Part shown: piece after piece, positions 19,752 through 63,342 of the stretch
Position numbering within the stretch: position 1 is the first letter of the stretch
How the letters are laid out: every line of letters starts with the position of its first letter
From: Candidatus Daviesbacteria bacterium
Lineage (GTDB): Bacteria; Patescibacteriota; Microgenomatia; Daviesbacterales; UBA10151
Reading direction: 5' to 3'
Length of the DNA stretch: 64,000 nucleotides
Assembly: GCA_030648645.1 (NCBI GenBank)
Contig: JAUSHL010000038.1
Coordinates: 3,657-67,656, forward strand
Notes under the pieces: model-generated
Databases searched by the model: none
Told to the model about the DNA's origin: nothing
What the model saw: the letters and a program-made list of their open reading frames with translations, nothing else
Translations under genes and position numbers: made by a program

Positions 19752-21996
19752 TTTTTGGCCAATTTTTAGTCATAATAGATTCTCCTGGAGCTATCTTTTG
19801 CCATAACTCTTCTGATAAAAAAGGCATAAAAGGATGGAGGAGCTTTAAGCAGGTTTGGAAAACATATTCTAAAACTGGTTGAGCCTCAGCTCTTCTGTCT
19901 TTGCTTTTTTCAATATAAACATCAGCAAACTTATGCCAGATAAATTCATATAATGTTTCTGTGGCCAGATGAAGCTGGAAGGATTCTAAATTTTTGGTCA
20001 CATCATTAATAGTTTTGTTTAGTTCTTCTAGTATTTTTTTATTATCGATATGAGATTGCTTCTCCGGCAATTGCCGGATCGCAATGACGTCAGTGCCGAG
20101 CGTTGTTGAAATGTCATTGCGAGGAGCCGTAGGCGACGTGGCAATCTCTTTTGGTTTTAGTTCATAAATAAATCTGTAAATATTTTTTATCTTTGTCCCA
20201 AAGTTCCGGTAATTTCTGCATCTTTCATCTATTATTTGTCGGGAGGTTCTGCCATCACGGCCGGGGGCAGAGTAGGAATAGAGTGCCATGCGGGTAGCAT
20301 CTACTCCCCACAGTTGTACCAAATCATAAGGATTAATACCATTGCCTAATGATTTGGAAAACTTTTTTCCATCTATTCCTCTGAGTGTTCCATGGAAAAA
20401 CATGTTTTTAAAAGGAATACTATCCTTAAACCAAAGACTTAACATAATTTGGCGGGCAATCCAAAGGTATTTAATCTCCGGAGCAGTTAGTTCAAAATCC
20501 CAGGGGAAGTATTTTTCCAATTCATCAGATTTGTCAGGTTTACCCTCCGAAGCTTTAGCGGAGGAGGGCCAATTAAGTGTAGATAAGGGCCACATTCCGG
20601 AAGAAAACCAAGTGTCTAAAACTTTCTCTTCCTGCACCCAGTCTTCTCCAGGTGAGTCTTTTGATACTTGTATTTGATTCCCTTTGTACCATATCGGTAT
20701 ACGGTGTCCCCACCAAAGATTGCGTGAGATACACCAATCATGAATTCCACTTAGCCAGTCTCCCAGAATTTTGTCATAGTTTTTGGGTAAAAAGTTGATT
20801 TTATCTAAATTCTTTAAAGCTTTTTCTGCCAATGGTTTCATTTTGATAAACCATTCCTCGGAGATTAAAGGCTCAACAGTAGTTTTGCATCTTTCGCAAA
20901 CAGGGACTGAATGAGTATATTCTTCTACTTTTTCGATTGTTCCATTTTGTTCTAAAATTTCAGCAACTTTTGCTCGGGCCTCGGCAATTTTTAAACCCTG
21001 CAAATCTCCGGCTAGATCAGTCATTTTTCCTAATTTATCAATGGCATGTAAAATCGGAAGGTTATGATCTTTGCCGATGGCAAAGTCCAAAGGATCATGA
21101 CCGGGGGTAATTTTTAAAGCCCCAGTCCCAAAATCTTTTTCAACACGGGTATCTTCAAAAATTGGGATTTGATTATTGTTTAATGGATTGATGGCAAATT
21201 TTCCAATAAATTTGGCAAATTTTGGATGATTGGGAAAAACTGCAATACCGCAATCTGCATAAATTGTTTCCGGACGGGCGGTGGCAATAGTAATAAATTG
21301 ATCTGTCATCCCGTACTTCGTCCAAAAGACGATCAGCCTTTGGCTGATGATACGGGATCCATGGATTCCCGCTTCCGCGGGAATGACATTATTGTTTTGT
21401 ATTTGATATTTAACATAATAAAGCTTTTCTTTTCTTTCCTCATATTCCATTTCCACATCTTCAATGGCAGTGTTGCATTTGGGACACCACTCTACAATAT
21501 AAGCCCCTTTATAAATTAAATCTTGCTCCCACAAAGTTTTAAATTCTACAAAAGTGGCTTGTTGAATTTTGGGATCCAAGGTAAAAACTTCTCTTGACCA
21601 GTCAGCCGAAATACCTAAAAAAGTCCAGGTGTTATGAAAAGAATTATAAATTTTTTCTTTAAATTTCCAAGCCCTTTTCATCCAACTATCATATCCTAAC
21701 TTTTGTTTGGAAAGATTTTCTTTGGCCAGTTCTTTGTTAAAAGTTGATTCAAAAATAATGCCGGCATGATCAACCCCCGGTAATAATAAAACATCAAATC
21801 CTTGCATTCGTTTGAAACGGGCAACTGCATCCAAAATTGATTGTTGCATAGCATGACCGAGGTGCAAATCTCCATTGACATTGGGTGGAGGCATTAAAAG
21901 GGAATAAGGTTTTTTAGAAGACTTAGGATCTGCTTTAAACAGCCCCGCCTTTTCCCAGAAATCATACAATTTTTGTTCTGAAGTTTGTTCATCCAT
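19744..21996 (-). CDS. valS: valine--tRNA ligase (short form) carrying two in-frame repeat-element insertions
   Basis: HIGH-type motif PPPNVNGDLHLGHA, KMSKS-type KFSKSLGN, editing-domain region WCPKCNTAIEDVEME; insertions at 20052-20148 and 21304-21388. Confidence 0.8.
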   Translation of the reverse strand: MDEQTSEQKLYDFWEKAGLFKADPKSSKKPYSLLMPPPNVNGDLHLGHAMQQSILDAVARFKRMQGFDVLLLPGVDHAGIIFESTFNKELAKENLSKQKLGYDSWMKRAWKFKEKIYNSFHNTWTFLGISADWSREVFTLDPKIQQATFVEFKTLWEQDLIYKGAYIVEWCPKCNTAIEDVEMEYEERKEKLYYVKYQIQNNNVIPAEAGIHGSRIISQRLIVFWTKYGMTDQFITIATARPETIYADCGIAVFPNHPKFAKFIGKFAINPLNNNQIPIFEDTRVEKDFGTGALKITPGHDPLDFAIGKDHNLPILHAIDKLGKMTDLAGDLQGLKIAEARAKVAEILEQNGTIEKVEEYTHSVPVCERCKTTVEPLISEEWFIKMKPLAEKALKNLDKINFLPKNYDKILGDWLSGIHDWCISRNLWWGHRIPIWYKGNQIQVSKDSPGEDWVQEEKVLDTWFSSGMWPLSTLNWPSSAKASEGKPDKSDELEKYFPWDFELTAPEIKYLWIARQIMLSLWFKDSIPFKNMFFHGTLRGIDGKKFSKSLGNGINPYDLVQLWGVDATRMALYSYSAPGRDGRTSRQIIDERCRNYRNFGTKIKNIYRFIYELKPKEIATSPTAPRNDISTTLGTDVIAIRQLPEKQSHIDNKKILEELNKTINDVTKNLESFQLHLATETLYEFIWHKFADVYIEKSKDRRAEAQPVLEYVFQTCLKLLHPFMPFLSEELWQKIAPGESIMTKNWPKTI

Positions 21997-22028: not shown

Positions 22029-23348
22029 TCAATCAGAAAGAGAGATGTTAGGGTTTGCTTGTAGTTTGATTGGTTCAATTGGGTGATAGTTGTATAAAGC
22101 ACTAGTTGCAATATAGACAGCATTATCGGTACAAAGCTTGGGGGTAGGAATAGAAATTCGCACATTCATCTTTTTTTGCAAAGATTGTGCCACAAGCTTT
22201 TTGGCAAGAATTTGGTTGGCTGCAACTCCTCCTGCAACCAAAATTTGTTCAACTTTAAATGTTTGGACGGCTTTTAAAGTTTTGGCAACTAAAACATCGG
22301 TGATTGCTTCTTGGATAGAGGCTGAGAGGTTTGATATTTCTTGGGATTGCTTCTCCGGCAATTGCCGGATCGCAATGACATTGTTCTTCTTGTCATCGCG
22401 AGGAGTGTTAACGACGAAGCGATCTCTTGCAATATTTGAAATTGCAGTTTTTAAACCGGAAAAAGAAAAATCCCAGCCATAGGCTGGTCCGCCTTTGGCG
22501 GAAAAATTTCCATTCTCCAGCATTGGTCGGGGTAGTGGATATGCTTTGGGATTTCCTTTTTCTGCCATTTTTGAAATGGACGGACCTCCGGGATAAGGTA
22601 AACCCAGTAGCCTGGCAGATTTATCAAAACATTCACCGGCAGCATCGTCACGGGTTCCACCTAAATATTTATATTTACCATGATCTGTCATTAAAATTAA
22701 ATCTGTATGACCTCCTGAAACAAGAAGACCAATGGCGGGGAAGGTGGGTACTGTAAAATTGTCATTGCGAGGAAGGTCGATACTTCGACCCGGCGCGGCA
22801 ATCTTATTAATTGATTTGGCAGATTGTTTCGCGGAGTTTACGCTGAGATTGCTTCGCTCTGCTCGCAATGACGTCGAAGTGTTCGCAATGACAGGAGAAA
22901 TCCAATTTGCATAAAAATGACCCAGTAAGTGATTCACCGGTATTAATGGTTTATTCCAAACAGTTGCCAGAACTTTAGCAGTTTCTACTCCCACAAGGAG
23001 AGAACCAATTAGCCCCGGACCTTCGGTAACAGCAATGGCATCGATAGATTTTATTATCTCTTTATTGTCATGCTGAACTTGTTTCAGCATCTTGTCTGTG
23101 GATCCCGAAATAAATTCGGGATGACACTTTGCTTGAGTAAGTGCTTCCTGAATGACGGGAATAATGGATTTTAATTGTTCACGGGCTGCCTGTTCCGGGA
23201 TCACACCGCCGAATTTAGCTTGTAACTCAGCCGAGGATGCCACAATATTGGACAATATCGTTACTCGTTTCTCGTCACTCGCCACGATAGCACAAGCTGT
23301 CTCATCACAGGATGACTCAATTCCTAAAATGATACGGGGATTTTTCAT
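22029..23348 (-). CDS. tsaD: tRNA N6-adenosine threonylcarbamoyltransferase TsaD (Kae1/Gcp family) carrying two in-frame repeat-element insertions
   Basis: N-terminus ILGIESSCDETACAIV, HLLGHFYAN and LVSGGHT motifs; 439 aa vs ~340 typical; insertions at 22345-22436 and 22760-22893. Confidence 0.85.
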   Translation of the reverse strand: MKNPRIILGIESSCDETACAIVASDEKRVTILSNIVASSAELQAKFGGVIPEQAAREQLKSIIPVIQEALTQAKCHPEFISGSTDKMLKQVQHDNKEIIKSIDAIAVTEGPGLIGSLLVGVETAKVLATVWNKPLIPVNHLLGHFYANWISPVIANTSTSLRAERSNLSVNSAKQSAKSINKIAAPGRSIDLPRNDNFTVPTFPAIGLLVSGGHTDLILMTDHGKYKYLGGTRDDAAGECFDKSARLLGLPYPGGPSISKMAEKGNPKAYPLPRPMLENGNFSAKGGPAYGWDFSFSGLKTAISNIARDRFVVNTPRDDKKNNVIAIRQLPEKQSQEISNLSASIQEAITDVLVAKTLKAVQTFKVEQILVAGGVAANQILAKKLVAQSLQKKMNVRISIPTPKLCTDNAVYIATSALYNYHPIEPIKLQANPNISLSD

Positions 23349-23827
23349 GGAAACAAACTCTCTGCTTTTAGACCTGTAAATTGCTCTATTCCCTGAGTAT
23401 AAGCATTAACTTTGCTCAATATTGTTGTTTTCCAAGGTTCAATGGTTTCTCTTAAAGCTTGTTTTGTATTCAAATTGCTTCTCACGATTGCCTGAACAAT
23501 AGCTTGGGCGATTCTTTCCTGACGGTGGTTATCAGATAAAGATAGTTCAATACATTCACCTGCCACAAGTCTTTCATCAAATTTTCTGCATAAAGATATA
23601 AATTGATCTTTGGAACATCCTGCAATATATAAAAGAGATTCCGGTGTCCAACCATTTATTTTTTCAGAAATTGCTTTTAAGTGATAAGACGGAAGACCAA
23701 CAAGTTGAATGGGGGGATTTTCTAAACTTATAAGTTCAACTAAATCTTGTACAACAGTCACTGCTCCCTCTAGTTTATTAGGCTGATGTGGATGCCAATG
23801 TGTCTGATCATGTTCAGGAATAGCCAT
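23345..23827 (-). CDS. hypothetical protein translationally coupled to tsaD
   Basis: ORF track; stop overlaps tsaD start by 4 nt; His-rich N-terminus HDQTHWHPH. Confidence 0.3.
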   Translation of the reverse strand: MAIPEHDQTHWHPHQPNKLEGAVTVVQDLVELISLENPPIQLVGLPSYHLKAISEKINGWTPESLLYIAGCSKDQFISLCRKFDERLVAGECIELSLSDNHRQERIAQAIVQAIVRSNLNTKQALRETIEPWKTTILSKVNAYTQGIEQFTGLKAESLFP

Positions 23828-23863: not shown

Positions 23864-24280
23864 TTAGGTAGAAATTTTAACAGAGTGGGCTTTTAACCAT
23901 TCGGATATTTGTTCCACTGAATAATTTTCATTTACTACTTTTCTTGTAAATTTGACTGCTTCTTTCCTTTTAATTTTTAAGGAATATTTATTATATTCAA
24001 GAAATAAAATAGCACAAAAAAGGGAAGTTCTTTTGTTTCCATCTAAAAAAGGATGGTTATTGATTATAGAATGAAATAAAGATGCACTTTTATCAAAAAT
24101 GGATTTATAAGCATCTTGAAATCCGATTGACATTTGAGGCCTACCTACAGAAGAACTTAATATATGTAAATCCCTTACACCATGAATGCCACCAAATTGA
24201 GACACCAATTCTTCATTGATAGCGATTATTTCTGCCTCAGAAAGATAGTGAATTATTATACTCTTGCCAGATCTTGCCAT
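23864..24280 (-). CDS. doc: Fic/Doc family toxin (death-on-curing)
   Basis: Fic motif HPFLDGNKRTSLF. Confidence 0.75.
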   Translation of the reverse strand: MARSGKSIIIHYLSEAEIIAINEELVSQFGGIHGVRDLHILSSSVGRPQMSIGFQDAYKSIFDKSASLFHSIINNHPFLDGNKRTSLFCAILFLEYNKYSLKIKRKEAVKFTRKVVNENYSVEQISEWLKAHSVKIST

Positions 24281-24495
24281 ACTCCTGCATATTTTTTAGA
24301 AATTTTTTTAATCAACTTTACTACTGTTGGGTCTATATCTGTTGGTTTTTTAGCCTTTTTCTCGTGCATCAAGAGCAATCCTTCATCGGTATTTTTCCAC
24401 TCAATAGTGGATCCATCTCTAATACTGAGTTGATGAGCATAAGCTTTTGGTACTGTTACTGCTAGAGAGTTGCCGTTTTTAAATACTTTTCTCAT
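24256..24495 (-). CDS. AbrB/MazE-fold antitoxin (Phd-like partner of Doc)
   Basis: SpoVT/AbrB-like N-terminus MRKVFKNGNSLAVTVPKAY; overlaps doc start. Confidence 0.6.
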   Translation of the reverse strand: MRKVFKNGNSLAVTVPKAYAHQLSIRDGSTIEWKNTDEGLLLMHEKKAKKPTDIDPTVVKLIKKISKKYAGVWQDLARV

Positions 24496-24568
24496 ACGAT
24501 TATTATATCACATTATGTACTGACAATGTACTGACCCCGATTTAATCGGGGCTGGCCTTTTTGCTATA

Positions 24569-24596
24569 TTGAAAGTATCATTCTCGGATGTATAAT
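24569..24596 (+). promoter_or_regulatory. sigma70-like promoter (TTGAAA-16-TATAAT) upstream of the 457-aa gene
   Basis: ttgaaagtatcattctcggatgtataat. Confidence 0.4.
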
Positions 24597-24604
24597 CTGT
24601 CTAT

Positions 24605-25978
24605 ATGTTGGAAACAGAACAGCTTGCCAAAGAGAATTTTGCCTCGGCTGTAGCTTTGGCAAAGACATTTGATTTTCGTTCGGATCAAATCCGGCTCAAT
24701 AGTCATATTGGAAAGTGTCTCGCAGGAGCAGGATTAGATTATTCTGCACAACTGCAATTTTTGAGTAAGATTCTACCCAGAGTAAAAGGTAAGAAGGAAG
24801 CAGAAGAAAGAAGATCCGCTCTATATGGAATGGCAGATATATATTTGGCCGGTAATGATCCGCAGTCAGCTTTTAAAATAATCTCCTTGGATAGAAATCG
24901 GCAGTCATTTTTGCGACCACATTTTGATCTAAAAATTGCCAGAGAGTTTGCCAAATTAGGGCAAGATCCAAGCAAAGCTTTAAAAAGAGTGTCATCTAAT
25001 ATCAGAAATGTAACAGGAGAGGATGGATTAAAGGATTTTATACAGGCTAATGATTATATTGGACTTGCCGAAACACAATATGATTTAGGTATTGATCATA
25101 AGCCTGCATTAACTAAAGCACATTCTCTATTTGAAAAATTAGGTTCAGAAAAATCAGTTGTCGAAGGTAAGTTAGCAAGGCTGTATGCTATATTCGGCGA
25201 TCCGGAGATGGTTTTGGATATAGTGGAGAAAATACAAGATCAAAATCCGGATCAAACCATTCATCGAAAAACAGAGGTTTTGCGGTCTGCATCCAGAGCA
25301 AGTTTGGCCAGAGGAGATGTTGATACCGCATTGGAAATTGCTGATGAGGAATCGGATTTGCTTATGGCTGAAATTGCTGCAGGTGGAGCAGTACAGGCAG
25401 TACAAAATAAAAATAGTGAATCAGCAGGTATTTTAATTGGAGTTGCAATGGATCATATAGATAGACCACAAGAGGAAGCATTGTCAGATTATGAGGAGGG
25501 GTGGCAGGCAGAAGTTTATTCTTTGATAGACCGAGCTAAGATTTTAACCGGAGTGAATCATGTTATGTATGGAGGAAGACCTTTTCTCCAGTCTTTAGAT
25601 ATTGCCTCTATTGTACGGGATGCACTATATCGTGCATCAACATATAATGAGATAGCCAAAAATCAGGCCTTAGTTGATATAGACGCAAAACCGGCTTGGA
25701 AATTAGCCCTTGAATCTGTTGCCAAAGAACTGAGACGTTCAGAAGGAAATAGTTGGACTGAGGGGGTGTGTTTACTCACCTTGGAAGATTTTACAAATGA
25801 TCAGGTTGAATGCGGTTACTATGATACAGCTTTGGATACAGTGGAGCAAATGATTAAAATTGATGAAATTACAAGCAAGAAGCTTACTAATAGATATTAT
25901 GAAGTATTTAAAACAGAGGTATTGGCAGATATTGGGTTAGCCCAGGTCAAAAAATCCCGCAAATTGGGGGCATCTTGA
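24605..25978 (+). CDS. alpha-helical repeat protein of unknown function (partner of Cas4-like nuclease)
   Basis: ORF track; predicted all-helical, locally higher GC than surroundings; stop 4 nt before next ATG. Confidence 0.3.
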   Translation: MLETEQLAKENFASAVALAKTFDFRSDQIRLNSHIGKCLAGAGLDYSAQLQFLSKILPRVKGKKEAEERRSALYGMADIYLAGNDPQSAFKIISLDRNRQSFLRPHFDLKIAREFAKLGQDPSKALKRVSSNIRNVTGEDGLKDFIQANDYIGLAETQYDLGIDHKPALTKAHSLFEKLGSEKSVVEGKLARLYAIFGDPEMVLDIVEKIQDQNPDQTIHRKTEVLRSASRASLARGDVDTALEIADEESDLLMAEIAAGGAVQAVQNKNSESAGILIGVAMDHIDRPQEEALSDYEEGWQAEVYSLIDRAKILTGVNHVMYGGRPFLQSLDIASIVRDALYRASTYNEIAKNQALVDIDAKPAWKLALESVAKELRRSEGNSWTEGVCLLTLEDFTNDQVECGYYDTALDTVEQMIKIDEITSKKLTNRYYEVFKTEVLADIGLAQVKKSRKLGAS

Positions 25979-25982
25979 ATAA

Positions 25983-26831
25983 ATGATTCAAAGGAAAAAG
26001 GCAGGTTTTGTTAAAAATGCCCTTTACTTATCTCACACCACTTTAAATGATTTTTTAAATTGCCCCCGTGCCTATTATTTAAAAAATATTTATCGTAATC
26101 CTGAGACCGGTTATAAATTACAAATTGCTTCCCCATATCTCAGCTTGGGTGCTACAGTGCATGATGCTATAAAATGGTTTTTGGAACAGGGATCAAAGTT
26201 GTTTTTCAATGATATTGAAGGGCAATACCGTAATCATTGGCAAAAATACCGTGGTAAAAAAGGTGGATTTAGTTCGGATGAGGAAGAAGCAATTTTTGGT
26301 AAGAGGGGATTGAAAATGCTTCAGAATTTTGTCGAAAATTCTTCTAAATTGGAAAAACTCCTACCACTTATAAATTTTCCTAAATATCCATTAACGGAAA
26401 ATATTATTTTGCACGGAAATATGGATTTTGTGGGGGAAAGAAAAGATGACAGTTTGCATGTTTTGGATTTTAAAACCGGCACCCGTGATGAAGACAGTCC
26501 AATTCAGCTTTATATTTATGCAATTTTGGCAGAAAATAATTATGAAAAGCCGGTTTCAAAGGCAAGTTTTTGGTATTTAGATCGGGATGAAAATCCCAAA
26601 GAAATAGTTATTGATTCTTTAGAACACACTATTGATTGGTTAAAAGAAAAGGGTTTACTCATGCAAAAAGCCATTGCCGAAAATAATTGGGTTTGTAAAA
26701 ATGGTCCCGCACCAGACGGTGCAGGATTGTGTAGAGATTGCAAGGAATATCAGGCAATAATTGATGGTAAAGGGGAATTTATGTTCTCAGATTATGCTTT
26801 TAAAAAGGATATATATTTTTTATCTCATTGA
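25983..26831 (+). CDS. PD-(D/E)xK nuclease of the Cas4/RecB family with four-Cys cluster
   Basis: N-terminal Cys (NCPRAYY), GNMDF, VLDFKTG (D-x-K), QLYIYA, C-terminal CKNGPAPDGAGLCRDC. Confidence 0.65.
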   Translation: MIQRKKAGFVKNALYLSHTTLNDFLNCPRAYYLKNIYRNPETGYKLQIASPYLSLGATVHDAIKWFLEQGSKLFFNDIEGQYRNHWQKYRGKKGGFSSDEEEAIFGKRGLKMLQNFVENSSKLEKLLPLINFPKYPLTENIILHGNMDFVGERKDDSLHVLDFKTGTRDEDSPIQLYIYAILAENNYEKPVSKASFWYLDRDENPKEIVIDSLEHTIDWLKEKGLLMQKAIAENNWVCKNGPAPDGAGLCRDCKEYQAIIDGKGEFMFSDYAFKKDIYFLSH

Positions 26832-27434
26832 ATGATCAGGTAAAGGTGGAATTTGAAAATATTTAAAAATCTTTTCCGGCAAAAGGGAAGTTTTAAACTC
26901 AGCGACTACAGGTTGATCTGTTAATTTATCAATAAATTTGTTTTCATTCTTTTTAACAACTGCCCGAAAGTGGGGCAATGAAGGTTTGGGCAGAGAAAGT
27001 TGTTGTTTAGGAAAATGATGAGGACAAAGGGTAAGAATATAGTGCAATTCTTCCTCTACGGTATGTTCCTGGTAACCTCCCGGATAAAAAAATCTGTTAA
27101 AAAAATAAACAAAACGGAGGCGATTGATAGGGAAAAGACCTAATTTTTCTAGCTTTGTAGCCTTATCTATTTTGTTGTGACTAATTGTATTGAACCCTAT
27201 TGAAATAAGTTCTGTGGAACAAACACCCAGGCCTTGGGCTTTTGCTGACTGATAAGCTTCTCTGTGCCTTAAAAAATTGAGATATTTATATTGTTCTTCT
27301 AATTCCAGATTTGCATTGCTGATTCTTGAGCGAAAGGTATCAAATTTTTTCTGCAGTTGGAGGTAAGCATCTCTGGCAGTATTGAATTCTTCCAAACCCT
27401 GTTCATAATTTTTTGGTAATAATTTTTCTGGCAT
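26820..27434 (-). CDS. hypothetical protein
   Basis: ORF track only. Confidence 0.3.
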   Translation of the reverse strand: MPEKLLPKNYEQGLEEFNTARDAYLQLQKKFDTFRSRISNANLELEEQYKYLNFLRHREAYQSAKAQGLGVCSTELISIGFNTISHNKIDKATKLEKLGLFPINRLRFVYFFNRFFYPGGYQEHTVEEELHYILTLCPHHFPKQQLSLPKPSLPHFRAVVKKNENKFIDKLTDQPVVAEFKTSLLPEKIFKYFQIPPLPDHSMR

Positions 27435-29108: not shown

Positions 29109-29321
29109 ATGCAAGCTACTGACTGGACAAAAATTTATAAGAATTTCCAAGGTCTTTGGGTGGCTTTAAAAGATGATGAACAAACTGTGATTGCTTCAGG
29201 TAAAAGCTTAAAGGAAACCTCAGAAAAAGCTCTAAAAAAGGGTTTTAGTGATCCTATCTTTATGCAAGTACCTCAAAAGTCAGCTTATTTTATAGGAAGC
29301 ACACATAAAAGTGATATTTAA
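29109..29321 (+). CDS. small protein (DUF5678-like?) preceding retropepsin-like protease
   Basis: ORF track; overlaps next gene by 11 nt. Confidence 0.3.
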   Translation: MQATDWTKIYKNFQGLWVALKDDEQTVIASGKSLKETSEKALKKGFSDPIFMQVPQKSAYFIGSTHKSDI

Positions 29322-29730
29322 ATATCGAAAAATTAATTTATCATCTCCATTTGCTCGTAACAAATATCTTTTAAGACCAATAATTCCGGTAAGTTTAAAT
29401 TATAAAAATCATGCGATTCATTATGAAGCTTTGATTGATTCCGGCGCAGATTTTAGTATTTTTCCCATAGAAATTGCCCAGAAACTGGGTGTTAATTTAA
29501 AGAAGAAAGATGGTATTTGTTTTTCTGGCTTGGGAGAAGAATTTATAGAGGGATTTAAAAGTAAAATTATTTTAAGAATAGATAAATTGGAGTTTAAAAC
29601 CAATGTGGTCTTTGCAGATTTAAGTGGCAAAAGTGGCATTTTAGGACAGAATGGATTTTTTGATTTATATAAGGTTAAATTTAGTTTACTACAAAAAGAA
29701 ATAGAAATAACTCCTTACAAAATTAATTAA
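29311..29730 (+). CDS. retropepsin-like (clan AA) aspartic peptidase
   Basis: ALIDSGADFSIFP contains the D-S/T-G-A catalytic signature; 139 aa single-lobe size. Confidence 0.55.
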   Translation: MIFKYRKINLSSPFARNKYLLRPIIPVSLNYKNHAIHYEALIDSGADFSIFPIEIAQKLGVNLKKKDGICFSGLGEEFIEGFKSKIILRIDKLEFKTNVVFADLSGKSGILGQNGFFDLYKVKFSLLQKEIEITPYKIN

Positions 29731-30313
29731 GGGGTATTTCGGCAATAGTGTTGTGTTTATGAAATCCTTCTTCCGGAATTGATTCAAAAAGTTTAACAGA
29801 GGTAATATTGATTGATTCAAAATCTTCTTTTACTGCCATTTCCTGTAATTTTTTTTCCTGTTCTTCTGATAAAAAATAATTACTGACTTTACCAATCGCA
29901 ATGTGAGGAACATACCTCCTTTCATCAGTATTCAAACCCAATTTAGCAATTCCATCTTTAATTCGTTCACGTAGAACAAACAATTTATCAATATCACCCT
30001 TAACTCCCACCCAGAAAGTGTCAGGATTGTGCAGATTAGGAAAAGCATCAATATAAGCAGGAATGATGGAAAAAGGGGAAATTCCAGATACAGCTTCTTT
30101 GATAATACTGGTAAAATCATCAATCATTTTTTCAGATTGCTCACCAATAAAAGCAATAGTCAGGTGCAGTTTTTCATTATTGGTCAGACGGACTTCAGGC
30201 ACAATCTGTTGCAGATCTTTTTGCACAGCTTTTAAAGACTCTCTGCAGCTATCGGGAATTTCTAAAGCAATGAAAAATCTCATATTATTGTTTAGACGAT
30301 TTTTCCAGTGCAA
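29723..30313 (-). CDS. thpR: RNA 2',3'-cyclic phosphodiesterase / 2'-5' RNA ligase (2H phosphoesterase, LigT/ThpR)
   Basis: Two H-x-T/S-x motifs: HLTIAF and HIAIGK. Confidence 0.7.
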   Translation of the reverse strand: MHWKNRLNNNMRFFIALEIPDSCRESLKAVQKDLQQIVPEVRLTNNEKLHLTIAFIGEQSEKMIDDFTSIIKEAVSGISPFSIIPAYIDAFPNLHNPDTFWVGVKGDIDKLFVLRERIKDGIAKLGLNTDERRYVPHIAIGKVSNYFLSEEQEKKLQEMAVKEDFESINITSVKLFESIPEEGFHKHNTIAEIPLN

Positions 30314-39554: not shown

Positions 39555-39704
39555 AGGTCATCCTGAGCGTAGTCGAAGGATTGATGACTTAATGGCAATA
39601 GTGGAGTGAGATTGCTTCTCCGCCAGTTGGCGGATCGCAATGACGCCAGCACTGAGTGTAGTTGAAGTGTCATTGCGAGGAGCCGAAGGCGACGTGGCAA
39701 TCTA
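39555..39704. mobile_element. MITE-like element immediately downstream of groES
   Basis: gaggtcatcctgagcg ... gagattgcttctccgccagttggcggatcgcaatgac ... gtcattgcgaggagccgaaggcgacgtggcaatct. Confidence 0.6.
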
Positions 39705-55508: not shown

Positions 55509-56720
55509 GTGTGTTTTAGTATACTCATACTCAACTTACACAAAAAAATAATCATGACCAATTCTAATAACAAAATGACTGTAACCTGTCCAAAATGCCA
55601 GCATAAATTTTCTGTTGATGAGGCACTGGTTCCGCAAATTGCCGAAGCCCGTTCTCAAATTGAAACAGAACTCCGCCAAAAAATGCTTGATTGGCAAAAA
55701 AATAAAGAAGAAATACTAAATAAGGATGTGGAAGAGAAATTAAAAGCACTAAAAAAAGAAAATGAAAAAAAGACAGAAGAACTTAAAAAAACCCGTGAGT
55801 TGGAACTGAAACTATTAAATGAGAAAAAAGCTTTTGAAGATGAAAAACAAACCTTTGAATTAAAAGTTCAACGGCAGATGAATGAAGAAAGAGAAAAAAT
55901 CCGGGAAAATGTCAGTAAAGTATTAATGGAAGAGCATCAACTTAAGGATGCTGAGAATTTGAAAAAAATTGCTGATATGTCCAAAATGATTGAGGAACTT
56001 AAATTAAAAGCCGGACAAGGTTCACAGCAATTACAGGGTGAAGTTTTGGAATTAGAACTGGAAGAATTACTTATTAAAACTTTTCCTTTGGATGAAATTT
56101 TACCGGTTGGTAAAGGGATTACCGGAGCGGATGTCGTACAAAAAGTTCGTGACACACAGGGTAAAGTGTGTGGGTCAATTATTTGGGAATCAAAAAGAAC
56201 TAAAAACTGGACAGAAGGATGGGTTATGAAATTAAAAGATGATTTGCGCGCGTCAAAAGGAAATGTGGCAGTACTGGTTACTTCAGTTTTACCACCGGAG
56301 ATTAATAAATTTGGTCCCCGCGATGGAATTTATGTGACTAATTTTGAAAGTTTCTTAAGTGTTGCCTCACTACTCCGGATTGCTTTAATTGAACAAAATA
56401 AAACAAAACTTTCTGTGGTGGGAAAAAATGAAAAAATGGATGCAATTTATAATTATTTATCAGGAAGTGAGTTCCGTCAAAGAGTGGAGGCAATCGTCGA
56501 AAGCTTTTCCGGAATGCAATCTGATTTGGAAAAAGAAAAAAGAATGTATACCCAAATTTGGGCAAAAAGAGAAAAACAAATTCAAAAAGTTTTGGATTCA
56601 ACCATTGGTATGCATGGAGATTTACAAGGATTAATGGGAGCATCTTTACCCCAACTACCAAGCTTAGATATTGAAATTGATGAAATTGAAATTATGATTG
56701 AAGAAAATTTAGAAAAATGA
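55509..56720 (+). CDS. DUF2130/RmuC-like protein: N-terminal C4 zinc ribbon, long coiled coil, conserved C-terminal domain (start may be the ATG at 55554)
   Basis: CPKCQHKF zinc ribbon; E/K-rich heptads; C-terminal GSIIWESKRTKNWTEGWVMKLKDD resembles DUF2130. Confidence 0.45.
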   Translation: MCFSILILNLHKKIIMTNSNNKMTVTCPKCQHKFSVDEALVPQIAEARSQIETELRQKMLDWQKNKEEILNKDVEEKLKALKKENEKKTEELKKTRELELKLLNEKKAFEDEKQTFELKVQRQMNEEREKIRENVSKVLMEEHQLKDAENLKKIADMSKMIEELKLKAGQGSQQLQGEVLELELEELLIKTFPLDEILPVGKGITGADVVQKVRDTQGKVCGSIIWESKRTKNWTEGWVMKLKDDLRASKGNVAVLVTSVLPPEINKFGPRDGIYVTNFESFLSVASLLRIALIEQNKTKLSVVGKNEKMDAIYNYLSGSEFRQRVEAIVESFSGMQSDLEKEKRMYTQIWAKREKQIQKVLDSTIGMHGDLQGLMGASLPQLPSLDIEIDEIEIMIEENLEK

Positions 56721-59700
56721 TTTCTAATACTTTTGATAAACTTTATAAACGATTAAATCCGGAACAAAAATTAGCTGTTGATGAGATAGAAGGACCAGTG
56801 ATGGTGATTGCCGGTCCGGGGACCGGAAAGACTCAAATTCTCACACTTCGGATTGCTAATATTTTAATTAAAACTCAAGTTAATCCGGAAAATATTCTGG
56901 CTCTAACTTTTACAGAATCTGCCAAATCAGAAATGAGGCAAAGATTAGTAGAAATTATTGGCACGCCGGCATACCGTGTACAAATTAATACTTTTCATGG
57001 TTTTTCCAATGAAGTTATAAAATCAAATCCAGAAAATTTTCCTCATTTAATTTCCTCAGAAAGTATTACTGAAGTTGAACAAATTGAAAGTTTGGAAAAA
57101 ATTATAACTAACACGGATTTGCAATTTTTAAAACCATTTGGTGATCCGCTGTATTATTTAAAACCCTCTTTATCGGAAATCAGTAATCTAAAAAAAGAGG
57201 GGATTGATTCAAATTTATTGGAGGAAGCAATAAAAAAATGGGAAGATGATTTTACTAAAATTGATGACTTATATCATGAAAAAGGAAAATACGCAGGAGA
57301 AATGAAAGGTAAATATCAAGACGAACTGAAAAGTATTAATAAGACAAAAGAACTGTTATTAATTTATAAAAAATATCAGGAATATTTATTAAAAGAAAGA
57401 AAATATGATTTTAATGACATGCTCTTGGAAGTAAAAAAAGCTTTGGAAAATGATAAAGGCTTATTACTTAGATTACAAGAAAAATATCAATACATTTTAA
57501 TTGATGAACATCAGGATACTAATGCAGTGCAAAATAAAATTGCTGAACTTTTAGGAAGTTTTTTCGAAGACAACCCAAATCTTTTTGTAGTGGGGGATGA
57601 AAAACAGGCAATTTTCCGTTTTCAAGGAGCCTCTCTGGAGAATTTTTTATATTTTCAAAAAAAATATCCAAAAGCTAAAATTATAAAACTTACAGAAAAT
57701 TACCGGTCGCATCAAAAAATCTTAGATGCTGTTGATAGTTTGATTTCTAATAATATTACCGCGAATTTATTATCTCCCAAGAAAATTATTTTGCATGCCC
57801 AATCAAAAAAAATATCTGAACCAATAAAACTGGCGGTGTTAAATAATTATTTTACTGAATATCAATTTATAGTTGATGATATTTCGAAAAAAATTAAACA
57901 AGGAATTCCACTGGAAGAAATTGCTATTATTGGCCGTAATAATAAAGATTTAAAAGTTGTTGCAGAATCCTTGGAAAGAAATGGTATTCCATATTCACTG
58001 CATAGTGATCAAAATATTTTTAATGATTTATATATGCAAAAATTGATCCTGATACTGGAAGCAGTAGGATCTGTGGGAAAGGACTTTGAACTATTAAAAG
58101 TCATGCATATTGATTTATTCAACATTGAGCCTTTGGACATTTATAAAATAATGGGGTATGCCCGCAAAAATAGAAGCTCCGTGTACGAGGTTTTGAGTAC
58201 TTTGAACAAAAGCTTAGCAAAAGAATTAAAACTTAAAAGTTTTGATTCATTAATTTCTTTTTATCAAAAATTAAATAATTGGCAAAAGACTGTACACAAC
58301 GAAAGTTTTGAAAAATTATTTATACAGGTTATAAACGAATCAGGATTTAAGGAAGCAATTTTAAAAAGTCCAAAAAGATTGGAACTTTTAGATAAATTGA
58401 TTACACTTTTTGAAGAAATTAAATCATTGGTTGAAAAAAATCCCAAATTCGGATTAAAGGATTTTTTAGATTATTTGCAGATGTGTCAAAAACATGAGTT
58501 ACCTTTAAAAAGTCATGTAATTTCGATTGATCAAAAAGCAGTAAAACTGATGACGGCACACCGTTCCAAAGGATTGGAATTTGATTATGTTTATATTGTT
58601 AATGCTTACGATGGACATTGGGGAAATGCTAAAAAAAGATCAGCTGGGCTTAAAATTCCTTGGGATATTTTAGGAATTACTTTAAATCTGGATACTGAAA
58701 ATGAAGATGAAAGAAGATTATTTTATGTAGCAATGACCCGCGCCCGCCAAGATATTATTATTACTTATTCAACACGCTGCCTTGAAGGAACAGAAAAAAT
58801 TCCATCACAATTTTTATCAGAAATTAATCCAAAATTAGTTGAAAAAATTGACACGGAGAAATTTGAAAAAGATTTTTTGCAGAAAAAAGAGGTAATTTTT
58901 GATGTAAGTACTGCGGTAAAAATTCCAGTGAAGAATGAATCTTCTCGAGGAGAAGCTTCTCCTAGAAAGGATCAACAATTTTTTAAAGAACTTTTTTTGC
59001 TTAGGGGATTATCAGCAACCGGACTTGATAATTATTTGAAATGTCCATGGCAATATTTTTACCGTAATTTATTGCAGTTTCCTGAAAGTAAAGAGAATTA
59101 TTTAATTTTTGGAACTGCAATCCACTTTGCTTTGGATTCTTTTATTTATCAAAGAAAAATAAAAAAATTAACTGGTAATTTTCTGGTAGAAAAATTTTCG
59201 GAAAGTTTAGATAATGAATTTCTTGTTGAACAAGACCGCAAAACACTTTTAGAAAAAGGTAAAAAAGCTCTACTTGGATACTTTGAAAATATTATTCCAA
59301 CTTGGGGGAAGGAAACCATGAGTGAGTTAAAAATATCTGGAGTAAAATTAACTGAAAATGTAACAATAACCGGAAGATTGGATATGATTGAAATAATTTC
59401 AGGAAACAGTGTTGCAGTACATGATTTTAAAACCGGAAAAATAAAATCCAGATCACAAATTGATGAGACAAATGAAAAAAGTGATTACCATTATTTGCGC
59501 CAGTTAACTTTTTATAAAATCTTATTAGATCGAAGTAAAAACGGATTAATGAAAATGACAGAAGGGGTAATAGATTTTATTGAACCAAATGAAAAAGGAA
59601 TATTTAAAAGTGAGAAATTTGAAGTGACAGAAATAATGGCAAAAGATTTGGAAAAAGAAATTATTAAAGTATCAAATGAGATTATAAATTTAGAATTTTG

Positions 59701-59767
59701 GGATAAAAGATGTGATGATCTAAAATGTGAATATTGTAAATTAAGAGATTTAACTATTTCAGAATAA
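56717..59767 (+). CDS. UvrD/PcrA-like superfamily-1 helicase fused to a C-terminal Cas4/AddB-like PD-(D/E)xK nuclease with Cys cluster
   Basis: Walker A AGPGTGKTQIL, DEHQDTN, VGDEKQAIFRFQGA, ENYRS; C-terminal CPWQYF...HDFKTGK...YLRQLTFY...CDDLKCEYCKL. Confidence 0.75.
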   Translation: MISNTFDKLYKRLNPEQKLAVDEIEGPVMVIAGPGTGKTQILTLRIANILIKTQVNPENILALTFTESAKSEMRQRLVEIIGTPAYRVQINTFHGFSNEVIKSNPENFPHLISSESITEVEQIESLEKIITNTDLQFLKPFGDPLYYLKPSLSEISNLKKEGIDSNLLEEAIKKWEDDFTKIDDLYHEKGKYAGEMKGKYQDELKSINKTKELLLIYKKYQEYLLKERKYDFNDMLLEVKKALENDKGLLLRLQEKYQYILIDEHQDTNAVQNKIAELLGSFFEDNPNLFVVGDEKQAIFRFQGASLENFLYFQKKYPKAKIIKLTENYRSHQKILDAVDSLISNNITANLLSPKKIILHAQSKKISEPIKLAVLNNYFTEYQFIVDDISKKIKQGIPLEEIAIIGRNNKDLKVVAESLERNGIPYSLHSDQNIFNDLYMQKLILILEAVGSVGKDFELLKVMHIDLFNIEPLDIYKIMGYARKNRSSVYEVLSTLNKSLAKELKLKSFDSLISFYQKLNNWQKTVHNESFEKLFIQVINESGFKEAILKSPKRLELLDKLITLFEEIKSLVEKNPKFGLKDFLDYLQMCQKHELPLKSHVISIDQKAVKLMTAHRSKGLEFDYVYIVNAYDGHWGNAKKRSAGLKIPWDILGITLNLDTENEDERRLFYVAMTRARQDIIITYSTRCLEGTEKIPSQFLSEINPKLVEKIDTEKFEKDFLQKKEVIFDVSTAVKIPVKNESSRGEASPRKDQQFFKELFLLRGLSATGLDNYLKCPWQYFYRNLLQFPESKENYLIFGTAIHFALDSFIYQRKIKKLTGNFLVEKFSESLDNEFLVEQDRKTLLEKGKKALLGYFENIIPTWGKETMSELKISGVKLTENVTITGRLDMIEIISGNSVAVHDFKTGKIKSRSQIDETNEKSDYHYLRQLTFYKILLDRSKNGLMKMTEGVIDFIEPNEKGIFKSEKFEVTEIMAKDLEKEIIKVSNEIINLEFWDKRCDDLKCEYCKLRDLTISE

Positions 59768-61262: not shown

Positions 61263-62173
61263 AAATATAATAACTTATAAACCGGATTATAAATTTTTAT
61301 AAAAGATCCGGGATATTCAATGACATTACCATGAAATCTTTTTTTGAACTCAGAAAAATTTTTCCATGATTTTCTCTCTTTCGGAAATCTTGGATCATAA
61401 ATTCCTTCAAAATCAAAAATAGGCAATTTTTTACTTTTGGCAAATTTAATACTTTCCCAAACCAATAAATAATTTGCTAAGGTTTCATAGCCTACTTTGG
61501 TAATACCTGTGTTCATATAAACAGCCCGATCTTCTAAAATTCCCAGCCAAACAGCTGCGACGGGTTGAGAAGATTGCTTCTCCGGCTTTCGCCGGATCGC
61601 AATGACATTATGATAGGCAAATAAAATATATGAAGAGTTTTTAAAAGCCATCATTTTTTTATGAAATTCGGAATGTCCCGGAATATAAAATTTTTTTAAA
61701 TGAGTTAAATTAGATAAAAGAGAATAAAATTTTTTAAATTGTAAATCACGGTCGCTATCTTTTAATGAAATTATTTTAATTTCTAAATTATTATTTTGCG
61801 CCTTTTTAATATTTCTTCTGGCATTTTCGGAAAATCCGGATAAAATTTTATTCTCTGATTTATTTATATCAATATAAATTGTTGAAGTGTGAGTGAGAGA
61901 GCTTTTCGATCGAACATATCCATTTTTTAAAACAGCTTCTTTATTAAAGTTATTTTTATCCGGTTCTAAAATTACAAATAAAGAATGATGCTTTTTGGCA
62001 AATTTATCAATTTCGGAAAATGATAAATTATTTTGAGGATGTTGAATTTTAATAACTGAATATTTTAAAAATGGTAAATTTCGAATAAAGACCCGAGAGT
62101 TTCCGATTTTTTCTACTTTCCAGCCAATTGAAGATAAATAATCTCCCCATTCTTTTGATTGTCTGATGTCCAT
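61241..62173 (-). CDS. FemAB-family peptidoglycan aminoacyltransferase-like protein carrying an in-frame repeat half-element
   Basis: FemAB-like N-terminus ...SKEWGDYLSSIGW...; VAIRRKPEKQSS encoded by MITE half-copy 61572-61616. Confidence 0.5.
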   Translation of the reverse strand: MDIRQSKEWGDYLSSIGWKVEKIGNSRVFIRNLPFLKYSVIKIQHPQNNLSFSEIDKFAKKHHSLFVILEPDKNNFNKEAVLKNGYVRSKSSLTHTSTIYIDINKSENKILSGFSENARRNIKKAQNNNLEIKIISLKDSDRDLQFKKFYSLLSNLTHLKKFYIPGHSEFHKKMMAFKNSSYILFAYHNVIAIRRKPEKQSSQPVAAVWLGILEDRAVYMNTGITKVGYETLANYLLVWESIKFAKSKKLPIFDFEGIYDPRFPKERKSWKNFSEFKKRFHGNVIEYPGSFIKIYNPVYKLLYLCSKILP

Positions 62174-62244: not shown

Positions 62245-63342
62245 TCAAACTTCGTTTATTAACCTAAGAAGTAATAATTTTAGTGGCATAAATTTTTCAA
62301 CTATATTAAATAAAATATAAATTGGCCAATTTAAAATTAAATCATAAGTTCCAATATATTCTATAAGTTCGGCACCCAACCCTCCTTTAAATTTAGTAAA
62401 TCCAAAATAAGAATCTTTTTCTCCTTTACTGAGATCTGCTGCTCCCCAAAGATCAAATTTTTTTAATCCCAATTTTTTACCCAATCTGATGGCATCCCAA
62501 GCCAATAAATTAGATGACATTACATTACGGTGTAATTCTGATGAGCCACCATAAGGATAATATAATGTATCTTTAAAATTTATTAACATCCAAGCGGTTA
62601 AAGGAATTTTTTCATAATAAGCAACTAATACTCTAACCATATTTTCTTTTTTCAGAGATTGCCAGACTGATTTGTGATAACTCATATTGTGTCCATGATA
62701 GCCTTGTCGTTTGGTAGTATCGAAATATAATTTTATGTAATCTGCAAAAAGCTGATCATCTGTGCCTTCTTTGATTATGACTTCATGTTTTTTTGCTACC
62801 TTGATGTTATATCTAAATTTTTGATGCATGTTTTGTAAAATTTCATCTTCGGATTTGGTTAAATCTAAAACATAATTGAATTTGGTAAAAAGTGGTTTAG
62901 GCGATGGTTTAAATTTTTTTGATATCAATGTGTTGTCATTGCGAGGAGCTCCGGCAGAGCCGGACGACGAAGCAATCTCTGTTTCAGATTGCTTCTCCGG
63001 CAATTGCCGGATCGCAATGACATCAGGTTCAATCTTAATGAAGGCACAATTATTTTCTTTGCCAATTTGTGTTAGGGCTTTGGCCAAATTTTTATCAGGA
63101 AATGGGCCTTTTGGTAAATATCCTACAAAATATTTTGTCAGAGGAATTTTATGAAAAGTAATTTGAAAAGCAGTTACTAATTGATTATTTTCAAAAAGAC
63201 CATATCTTTTTAATTTTGTATCCAAACTTTTTCTAAACTGCCCCCAAGCCCATGATTGCATGAGATGAGATACTGATTTATTGTAAATATTTTTTTCTTT
63301 TTCAGTAATTTCTCGCAAGTCCATAGCTGAATTATATATCAA
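62245..63342 (-). CDS. FemAB-family peptidoglycan aminoacyltransferase (FemX-like) carrying an in-frame repeat element
   Basis: ...HLMQSWAWGQFRKS...YLPKGPF... FemAB signature; insertion PDVIAIRQLPEKQSETEIASSSGSAGAPRNDNTLIS from 62934-63021. Confidence 0.6.
   Translation of the reverse strand: MIYNSAMDLREITEKEKNIYNKSVSHLMQSWAWGQFRKSLDTKLKRYGLFENNQLVTAFQITFHKIPLTKYFVGYLPKGPFPDKNLAKALTQIGKENNCAFIKIEPDVIAIRQLPEKQSETEIASSSGSAGAPRNDNTLISKKFKPSPKPLFTKFNYVLDLTKSEDEILQNMHQKFRYNIKVAKKHEVIIKEGTDDQLFADYIKLYFDTTKRQGYHGHNMSYHKSVWQSLKKENMVRVLVAYYEKIPLTAWMLINFKDTLYYPYGGSSELHRNVMSSNLLAWDAIRLGKKLGLKKFDLWGAADLSKGEKDSYFGFTKFKGGLGAELIEYIGTYDLILNWPIYILFNIVEKFMPLKLLLLRLINEV

Follow-up and report, generated by a model that had tools for sequence, protein, structure and literature searches.

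A free-standing PD-(D/E)XK nuclease of Daviesbacteria and its TPR-like neighbour, a probable insertion in an accessory-gene hot spot

The window analysed here, a 64,000-nucleotide (nt) stretch of contig JAUSHL010000038.1 from a Candidatus Daviesbacteria bacterium, is an ordinary piece of near-origin chromosome with dnaA, dnaN, groEL, valS, metG-like and murB genes. It carries, on the same strand, a gene for a helical protein of 457 amino acids (aa) followed by a gene for a free-standing 282-aa nuclease of the PD-(D/E)XK type, and an earlier note, made from the sequence alone, had read the two as a co-evolving defence pair. Comparison across genomes points to another account, which we consider likely: the nuclease would be a conserved core gene and its neighbour, which encodes a tetratricopeptide repeat (TPR)-like protein, an unrelated insertion in a hot spot, the two not forming a two-gene defence system. 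The two open reading frames (ORFs) do lie 4 nt apart, as had been stated, and the features on which the comparison turns are as follows.

24605-25978, + strand: helical protein gene, 457 aa; TPR-like alpha-solenoid, lineage-specific accessory gene
25979-25982, + strand: spacer ATAA, 4 nt, from the stop codon TGA of the helical gene (25976-25978) to the ATG of the nuclease gene (25983)
25983-26831, + strand: nuclease gene, 282 aa; free-standing PD-(D/E)XK nuclease, Daviesbacteria syntenic core gene
22029-23348, - strand: tsaD, the left synteny anchor, divergent from the nuclease gene
29723-30313, - strand: ligT (2'-5' RNA ligase family), the right synteny anchor, parted from the nuclease gene by inserted genes

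Distribution and synteny of the two genes

A word-indexed search of 5.8 billion proteins, for which the nuclease and the helical protein both served as queries, retrieved 537 homologues of the nuclease, summarised as being of 277-300 aa and 55-69 % identity, and for both queries an entry of 100 % identity from a Candidatus Daviesbacteria metagenome-assembled genome. The best 120 of these 537 are 267-310 aa long, share 56-69 % identity with it and belong, where named, to Daviesbacteria or Patescibacteria. Gene order was compared with the window proteins in 38 species-level loci (GTDB species representatives) and in three additional long-contig look-ups. The recurrent arrangement is L25(+) valS(-) tsaD(-) nuclease(+) ligT(-) vanW-like(-) solute-binding protein(+): of the 38 loci, 28 have tsaD 5' of the nuclease gene on the other strand (phmmer) and 27 have ligT downstream of it, often overlapping its 3' end. 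Next to the closest orthologue (69 % identity) tsaD is directly divergent, with neither toxin-antitoxin (TA) genes nor a helical gene in between. Mean pairwise identity amounts to 58.5 % for the nuclease, 58.6 % for TsaD and 54.8 % for ValRS. Sequence and gene order together indicate that the nuclease is a vertically inherited core gene of Daviesbacteria, as conserved as TsaD.

Profile hidden Markov models (HMMs) of the helical family (A2 and A3), applied at E<=10 to the 6 kb on either side of the nuclease gene, found no family member in any of the 38 loci. Conversely, no match to the nuclease profile was present in the five independent helical-family contexts with a visible neighbour, which were obtained from exact-protein look-ups (a further contig, L048, showed no neighbour). 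In these contexts the helical-family gene is convergent with doc (L001), follows rpsT and precedes pilN/pilO (L007/L008), lies between fabD-like and SDR genes (L047), follows a BrnT/CopG pair and precedes a 370-aa gene without known family (L051, where the family member is split by a stop codon), or precedes RNase H and a DUF4012 protein (L052). Two metagenome-contig scans with the closer alignments A1 and A5 returned no further relatives of the family, and PADLOC contains no single known defence system that matches both proteins. What by size seemed a second instance of the pair, a 455-aa gene of L050 that lies upstream of the nuclease between tsaD and doc/phd, was rejected, the protein being unrelated to the helical one (BLASTP E 0.77).

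This search for co-occurrence across genomes had been named beforehand as the test that could refute the pair, and it places the pair in this genome only and the nuclease in a housekeeping slot. The proposal of a co-evolving defence pair is not supported: a functional-pair reading fails because in the loci compared there is no co-occurrence beyond this genome and because the context of the nuclease is that of a housekeeping gene. With the candidacy goes any ground for phage-challenge experiments on that basis. More generally, insertion can leave unrelated genes under one promoter and only 4 nt apart, and close spacing, if seen in just one genome, does not show that two genes work as a pair.

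A narrower version of the pair would confine the partnership to this lineage. After the two genes were fused, the TPR protein would have become the regulator or targeting partner of the nuclease, as a prokaryotic Argonaute (pAgo) modulates the nuclease ACE1, and the locus would be a young defence or repair module. The 4-nt spacing, the single promoter and the lack of a separate -10 box for the nuclease gene fit such a scheme, as do the surroundings with their many TA and accessory genes; binding to other proteins is typical of TPR solenoids, and ACE1, the closest solved structure, is modulated in a heterodimer. However, the arrangement is seen in one genome only, and doc, not the nuclease, lies downstream of the TPR gene's only close homologue. 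The TPR gene is shorter than its family, which looks like damage and not like adaptation. The invariant positions of the nuclease are unchanged, and its only lineage feature, a loop insert of 5-7 aa, also occurs in orthologues without a TPR neighbour. We regard such a nascent partnership as very unlikely.

Several points nevertheless weigh against the account of a core gene and an unrelated insertion. The synteny sample was retrieved by two peptide patterns and consists mostly of relatives with at least 54 % identity. Vertical inheritance of the nuclease rests on synteny, not on a tree; its pairwise identities correlate neither with those of ValRS (Spearman -0.02) nor appreciably with those of TsaD (0.14), the divergence of the nuclease being flat (54-64 %), star-like and saturated and that of ValRS bimodal. 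The same data would fit a constitutive role in defence, which has been proposed for some solo proteins of the Cas4 family. Finally, to judge from the 4-nt gap and the lost -10 box, the two genes are almost certainly co-expressed here, and a secondary functional link between the TPR protein and the nuclease may exist in this genome.

Class and likely role of the nuclease

Residues 16-253 of the nuclease align with positions 2-240 of the 247 positions of the Pfam profile PF12705 (PDDEXK_1; E 6e-18, 66.1 bits against a cut-off of 22). Its scores lie below the Cas4 cut-offs of both PF01930 (14.6 versus 22.7 bits) and TIGR00372 (35.3 versus 65 bits), and by these profiles it is not a Cas4 in the strict sense (PF01930, TIGR00372 or COG1468). 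Its motif residues (D148, D162-x-K164 and Q175-xxx-Y179) mark it instead as a predicted RecB-type nuclease of the AddB/AdnA/ACE1 branch of the Cas4-RecB superfamily. The RecB-type motifs D...(D/E)xK...QxxxY are found in 39-40 of 40 locus copies, and an alignment of 30 orthologues shows C27, H60, D148, D162-F-K164, Q175, Y179, C238, C250 and C253 to be invariant.

The protein has exactly four cysteines, at positions 27, 238, 250 and 253. The Cas4-type layout of one N-terminal and three C-terminal cysteines, as first described, is thus present, with a C-terminal spacing of C-X11-C-X2-C and not of CX10CX2C. Across the family the gap between the second and the third cysteine varies from 5 to 17 residues, 6 being the commonest value, which gives a family pattern of C-X(5-17)-C-X2-C. 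The canonical C-terminal spacing of AddB and Cas4 (SSO0001) is C-X2-C-X5-C, and the nuclease family differs from it in this respect.

An AlphaFold2 model of the nuclease (predicted local distance difference test, pLDDT, 91) has ACE1 as its best Foldseek match (9iab/9iac; E 1e-10, template-modelling (TM) score 0.58-0.64, 18-22 % identity), followed by the nuclease domains of AdnA (E 1e-7), AddB (E 7e-7) and Dna2, with canonical Cas4 structures appearing only at E 3e-3 to 1e-2. ACE1 is also the sole significant sequence match of the nuclease in the Protein Data Bank (PDB; E 9e-9). The PADLOC matches of the nuclease are confined to models for generic Cas4, Aga-nuclease and DruK nuclease, of which 'Aga_Cas4-like_Nuc' scores best (3e-10). 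The former description as a 282-aa Cas4-like iron-sulfur (Fe-S) PD-(D/E)xK nuclease therefore holds as regards its free-standing form, its place in the broad Cas4/AddB superfamily and its Fe-S-type set of cysteines; it does not hold at the level of the Cas4 cut-offs. The statement that the gene has no CRISPR or cas neighbours is borne out, since no CRISPR-like array occurs in the 64-kb window and no cas family was found among the 39 window ORFs that were scanned against Pfam, or among the neighbours in the three long-contig related loci.

In ACE1 four conserved cysteines are reported to bind an Fe4S4 cluster, and the enzyme is described as an end-requiring endonuclease of single-stranded DNA (ssDNA) (PMC12094033). 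Its active site lies in a narrow channel, it is most similar to AdnA and AddB, and it acts, without a helicase, within a heterodimer that modulates its activity (PMC12094033). The Daviesbacteria nuclease resembles ACE1 in its size (~270-280 aa), in its free-standing form, in its PD-(D/E)XK core with D-DxK and in its 1+3 layout of cysteines. The genomic settings are different. The partner in the ACE1/APACE1 system is a long-A prokaryotic Argonaute, whereas no Argonaute gene is adjacent to the Daviesbacteria nuclease in the window or in the related loci, its neighbours in the window being the TPR-like gene, Doc/Phd, the 204-aa orf204 and a NUDIX gene. Moreover, ACE1 is reported from cyanobacteria only, whereas the Daviesbacteria nuclease is encoded by a syntenic core gene and not as part of a defence operon. 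With AddB and AdnA (PDB 3U44, 4CEJ and 6PPR) it shares PF12705 and a RecB nuclease fold of the 'iron staple' type (Foldseek E 1e-7 to 1e-6). Unlike the AddAB and AdnAB subunits, it consists of the 282-aa domain alone, with no superfamily 1 (SF1) helicase-like body and no adjacent helicase-nuclease partner.

By homology and fold the nuclease would be Mg2+-dependent. A [4Fe-4S] 'iron staple' is expected on C27 and the three cysteines near the C-terminus, and a free ssDNA end would most likely be threaded into a narrow channel and cut there, as in ACE1 and the nuclease domains of AddB and AdnA. Because the gene is conserved and fixed in position, a cellular role in DNA-end processing or repair is favoured; by analogy the protein would be a housekeeping enzyme of DNA-end processing, repair or recycling.

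Genes for solo-Cas4 are enriched in candidate phyla radiation (CPR) genomes, where they show mostly vertical descent and ordinary selection, in a study that focused on PF01930/COG1468 and treated PF12705 briefly (Hudaiberdiev et al. 2017, PMC5704561). The Daviesbacteria nuclease is akin to the solo-Cas4 proteins of CPR bacteria and DPANN archaea in being a Cas4-superfamily nuclease outside CRISPR-cas, apparently vertically inherited and under ordinary purifying selection, in a small-genome CPR host, and differs from them in failing the PF01930 and TIGR00372 cut-offs. It is of a known kind, a solo Cas4-superfamily nuclease of CPR from the PF12705 branch, and provides a concrete syntenic example for the reported, unexplained excess of solo Cas4-family proteins in small-genome CPR bacteria. 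Also suggested is a role in DNA-end processing, in which a second nuclease of the same genome may take part.

56717-59767, + strand: UvrD/PcrA-type helicase with a C-terminal Fe-S-type PDDEXK_1 fusion, 1016 aa; AddA/AdnB-like single-chain helicase-nuclease, paralogue of the solo nuclease

The fusion protein matches UvrD-helicase (1e-63), UvrD_C (1e-38) and PDDEXK_1 (1.5e-20) in Pfam, and its PDB relatives are PcrA, UvrD, AddA and AdnB. The solo nuclease may work alongside it. A more specific proposal, compatible with a core-gene status of the solo nuclease, is that the latter is a minimal AddB/AdnA-like subunit which forms, with the UvrD-PDDEXK motor, a reduced two-nuclease end-resection machine. 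The nuclease domain of the fusion is of the same type, with the cysteine layout C...C-X4-C-X2-C and 26 % identity to the solo protein (E 2e-11). Against this, the two genes lie 30 kb apart and not in one operon, the fusion gene being the only UvrD-nuclease gene of the window. AddB and AdnA contact their partners through a helicase-like scaffold (structures 3u44 and 6ppr), which the solo nuclease does not have, and ACE1 shows that such domains act without a helicase. We therefore see a dedicated two-subunit machine as conceivable but doubtful.

Two related observations concern the surroundings of these nucleases. A DUF2130 gene (55509-56720) overlaps the start of the fusion gene by 4 nt, and in L044 a second PDDEXK_1 protein, of 227 aa, is encoded divergently from the nuclease.

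The helical protein, its promoter and the junction

The word-indexed search with the helical protein returned only the query itself and one homologue of 49 % identity. When 1.8 billion cluster representatives were searched exhaustively with a profile, the family widened to 69 of them at E<=1e-3 (31 at E<=1e-10), mostly of 440-520 aa and matching from end to end. The protein had been described as all-helical and a structural check proposed, with TPR/HEAT repeats or a sensor in mind. Consistent with that description, AlphaFold2, run with a 28-member alignment, gives 22 helices and no strands (pLDDT 93, predicted TM score, pTM, 0.91). Foldseek aligns the model with designed pentatricopeptide repeat (PPR) proteins, LGN, IFIT5, TTC7B, CNOT10 and Tom70 (probability 1.0, TM score 0.25-0.38). 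The protein is a TPR-like alpha-solenoid.

The window protein itself scores below the Pfam cut-offs for TPR_14 (20.2 versus 23.5 bits) and TPR_4 (18.5 versus 27 bits); relatives in the family match TPR_19 (5e-8) and TPR_12 (1.5e-5). With scaffolds such as LGN, IFIT5, TTC7B and the designed PPR proteins it has all-helical hairpin repeats in common, but the TM scores are low and no specific family is matched, and the helical family has a G-x-D-P turn motif of its own in the repeat and a conserved tail. The protein is a probable cytoplasmic TPR-like scaffold for binding other proteins, without a catalytic domain and from a small, fast-evolving family; the scaffold is of a generic kind. A Septu-like link was rejected, the PADLOC match to the C-terminus of PtuA (16 bits over 60 residues) being judged to reflect similarity between helical regions.

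The conserved C-terminal tail of the family is of ~35 aa with the consensus GLSxxELxxLPxxxIRxIL...AKEAVxYFGL. The window copy ends without it, and a search of the vicinity, frameshifts included, found no remnant and returned noise only. This loss, a weak promoter-like site inside the ORF (25833-25860) and the stop-codon-split family member of L051 could be taken as signs of decay, in which case the 457-aa ORF would be a remnant or spurious and the nuclease would be expressed from a cryptic internal promoter. However, all 457 codons stay in an unbroken frame, the product can be aligned with full-length homologues from one end to the other, AlphaFold2 models it confidently throughout and the promoter upstream is conserved. 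Decay in this sense appears very improbable.

The region upstream of the helical gene contains three elements.

24516-24535, no strand assigned: direct repeat TGTACTGAC-AA-TGTACTGAC, adjoining the phd start
24535-24562, + strand: G+C-rich hairpin CCCCGATTTAATCGGGG with a T-run, between the phd operator and the helical-gene promoter
24569-24596, + strand: helical-gene promoter TTGAAA-16-TATAAT with TG upstream of the -10 box; 11 of 12 matches, the best of 16 promoter-like sites

Promoter-like sites as such are not enriched, a scan of 5 kb giving 16 against 17.2 expected from shuffled sequence. The TTGAAA-16-TATAAT site stands above chance through its conservation in L001, where it is kept almost base for base 5' of the gene for the sole close homologue of the helical protein, the 49 %-identical one (TTGAAAGTATTATTAAGGGATGTATAATCTGT). 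It can be assigned to the helical gene because in L001 it is doc, and not the nuclease, that lies downstream. The upstream gene thus has a promoter of its own, in agreement with the initial reading. Between the end of the -10 hexamer and the ATG of the helical gene there are 8 nt, which would give a leaderless or near-leaderless mRNA.

Leaderless-type promoters are apparently the rule. A TAnAAT box, often with TG/GG just upstream, ends 6-13 nt before many start codons, as at the window starts 24495(-), 24605, 27538, 29109, 32972(-), 33143 and 18360 and at the nuclease start in loci L013-L050, and a Shine-Dalgarno sequence is not evident.

A -10-like hexamer, TAnn[AT]T, ends 4-12 nt before the start codon of the nuclease gene in 25 of 34 orthologues (background 13 %). 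No such hexamer lies 4-12 nt before the ATG of the window nuclease, and the box is likewise missing in several orthologues that have a same-strand gene abutting upstream.

The helical gene had also been called richer in G+C than its surroundings. This is so with respect to the window average (39.1 versus 34.1 %; 95th percentile among windows of the same size) but not with respect to every gene, tsaD (42.6 %) and groEL (39.4 %) being as rich or richer. At third codon positions (GC3) the helical gene (27.7 %) equals the nuclease gene (26.9 %) and dnaA (27.2 %), and the excess is therefore attributed to amino-acid composition and not to a foreign codon signature; a foreign origin of the gene, as judged from its G+C content, was rejected on this ground.

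The TGTACTGAC repeat is kept next to phd in L003, L014, L016, L017, L031 and L038, where it stands directly between phd and the nuclease gene. It is probably the Phd/Doc operator and shows where the ancestral phd-nuclease intergenic region lay. We infer that a cassette of promoter and TPR gene entered this spacer, and that a deletion would then have removed the TPR tail, the spacer and the -10 box of the nuclease gene. The nuclease would now be read from the TPR transcript, probably by termination-reinitiation across UGA-AUAA-AUG. Other species lack the hairpin CCCCGATTTAATCGGGG in their phd-nuclease spacers, and it may have come in with the cassette. The terminator scan did not call it, its T-run beginning 6 nt past the stem, and upstream of it there is no + strand gene to terminate.

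The hot spot and other features of the window

The pair had been placed between Doc/Phd and NUDIX/VapBC modules, in a toxin-antitoxin island. The flanking genes (Doc/Phd upstream; NUDIX, PF00293, and PIN/VapC, PF01850, downstream) proved to be as described, and the neighbourhood is a variable stretch with many TA and accessory genes.

23864-24280, - strand: doc, PF02661 Fic/DOC (2.9e-16)
24256-24495, - strand: phd, PF04014 MazE_antitoxin (1.5e-10), overlapping doc by 25 nt

By their family matches doc and phd are predicted to form a type II TA pair, Phd/Doc. Both genes lie between tsaD and the nuclease gene in 12 of the 38 loci, and in a thirteenth phd alone is seen, at the edge of the contig. 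What stands immediately 5' of the nuclease gene differs between species, examples being a Sigma70_r4 protein, a RelE-like pair and several products of unknown function. Others, from the tsaD-nuclease interval of loci L009-L046, are a reverse transcriptase (RVT_1; L037, 4211-5230), SLFN-AlbA_2/HATPase_c_4 (L019), a 614-aa AAA_15 ATPase (L026), Fic (L036), Bro-N/AbiJ_NTD4 (L015 and L025), RhuM (L012) and secreted proteins of ~900 aa (L018, L030 and L033). The large opposite-strand secreted proteins of these last three loci form a group of relatives. Among the upstream genes on the same strand no relationship was seen except between the Bro-N genes of L015 and L025. The nuclease-ligT interval is likewise variable among loci, and in the window it holds orf204, the NUDIX gene, VapBC, a DUF5678 gene and an aspartyl-protease-like ORF.

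Accessory- and defence-gene hot spots flanked by core genes are known in other bacteria. The present locus is like them in that core genes (tsaD, the nuclease gene and ligT) bracket variable TA and defence-type cargo, and differs in that it belongs to Daviesbacteria, a CPR lineage, and that neither an integrase nor an attachment site was found. Together the two intervals, tsaD-nuclease and nuclease-ligT, make up a clearly delimited hot spot that is useful for mining the defence and TA cargo of CPR bacteria.

The same variability could be given a functional meaning, with the nuclease as a shared effector or processing enzyme and the upstream inserts (TPR, Fic, Schlafen/AlbA, AAA_15 and Bro-N) as interchangeable sensors or regulators. 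If so, the tsaD-nuclease interval would be a 'plug-in' defence locus and the TPR-nuclease operon one working instance of it. In 12 of the 38 loci the nuclease start is no more than ~70 nt away from the end of an upstream ORF on the same strand, the -10 box of the nuclease gene is missing in five of those 12 (L010, L019, L025, L036 and L037), and some upstream proteins come from families that occur in defence systems. On the other hand, plain TA pairs, a sigma/helix-turn-helix (HTH) protein, a predicted secreted protein and proteins of no known family are also among the upstream occupants. Occupants on the opposite strand are about as numerous (Doc/Phd in 12-13 loci, RhuM, large secreted proteins), and in many genomes (L002, L013, L035, L039 and L049) tsaD is directly divergent with nothing in between. 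The downstream side of the nuclease is equally variable, and a hot spot flanked by core genes is the simpler account. An exchangeable defence locus is thus highly improbable, and an insertion hot spot next to a core nuclease gene is the reading that we retain.

Two ORFs of the window overlap the ends of the core genes. One of 204 aa (26820-27434, - strand; orf204) is convergent with the nuclease gene and overlaps its 3' end by 12 nt, and one of 160 aa (23345-23827, - strand) overlaps the tsaD start by 4 nt. Neither has a match in Pfam, NCBIfam or PADLOC, and neither was found in the syntenic loci of other species. At 29109-29730 a gene for a small DUF5678 protein overlaps by 11 nt the next ORF, which encodes a retropepsin-like aspartyl protease of 139 aa, and this pair of genes is also present in L025 and L038.

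In the valS slot of the syntenic loci, identity to the window ValRS is bimodal, being 35-44 % in 19 loci and 58-67 % in 8 (loci L002-L043). TsaD and nuclease identities are smooth over the same loci, which suggests that in some lineages a distant version has taken the place of valS in situ.

A dispersed 35-nt hairpin repeat, GATTGCTTCTCCGGCAATTGCCGGATCGCAATGAC, is present in five copies where none is expected:

20054-20088: copy of GATTGCTTCTCCGGCAATTGCCGGATCGCAATGAC
22345-22379: copy of GATTGCTTCTCCGGCAATTGCCGGATCGCAATGAC
39610-39644: copy of GATTGCTTCTCCGGCAATTGCCGGATCGCAATGAC
61572-61606: copy of GATTGCTTCTCCGGCAATTGCCGGATCGCAATGAC
62987-63021: copy of GATTGCTTCTCCGGCAATTGCCGGATCGCAATGAC

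In their stems the copies differ by compensatory changes (CCGGCAATTGCCGG / CCGCCAGTTGGCGG / CCGGCTTTCGCCGG), and a companion motif, GTCATTGCGAGGA, occurs in seven copies. Further positions listed with the GATTGCTTCTCCGGCAATTGCCGGATCGCAATGAC repeat are 12776, 20113, 22392, 22761, 22860, 39669 and 62935. Four of the five copies lie in frame within coding genes, namely valS, tsaD and two FemAB-like genes, and in this the repeat resembles the Rickettsia-type palindromic elements, which insert into ORFs. The window ValRS (750 aa) and TsaD (439 aa) are reported as longer than their relatives (690-771 and 340-364 aa, respectively). Elsewhere in the window, near dnaN and dnaA, a gene at 1249-2988 encodes a TraG/VirD4-like P-loop ATPase (PF19044, AAA_10) and is followed by a 540-aa ORF without a family match in Pfam.

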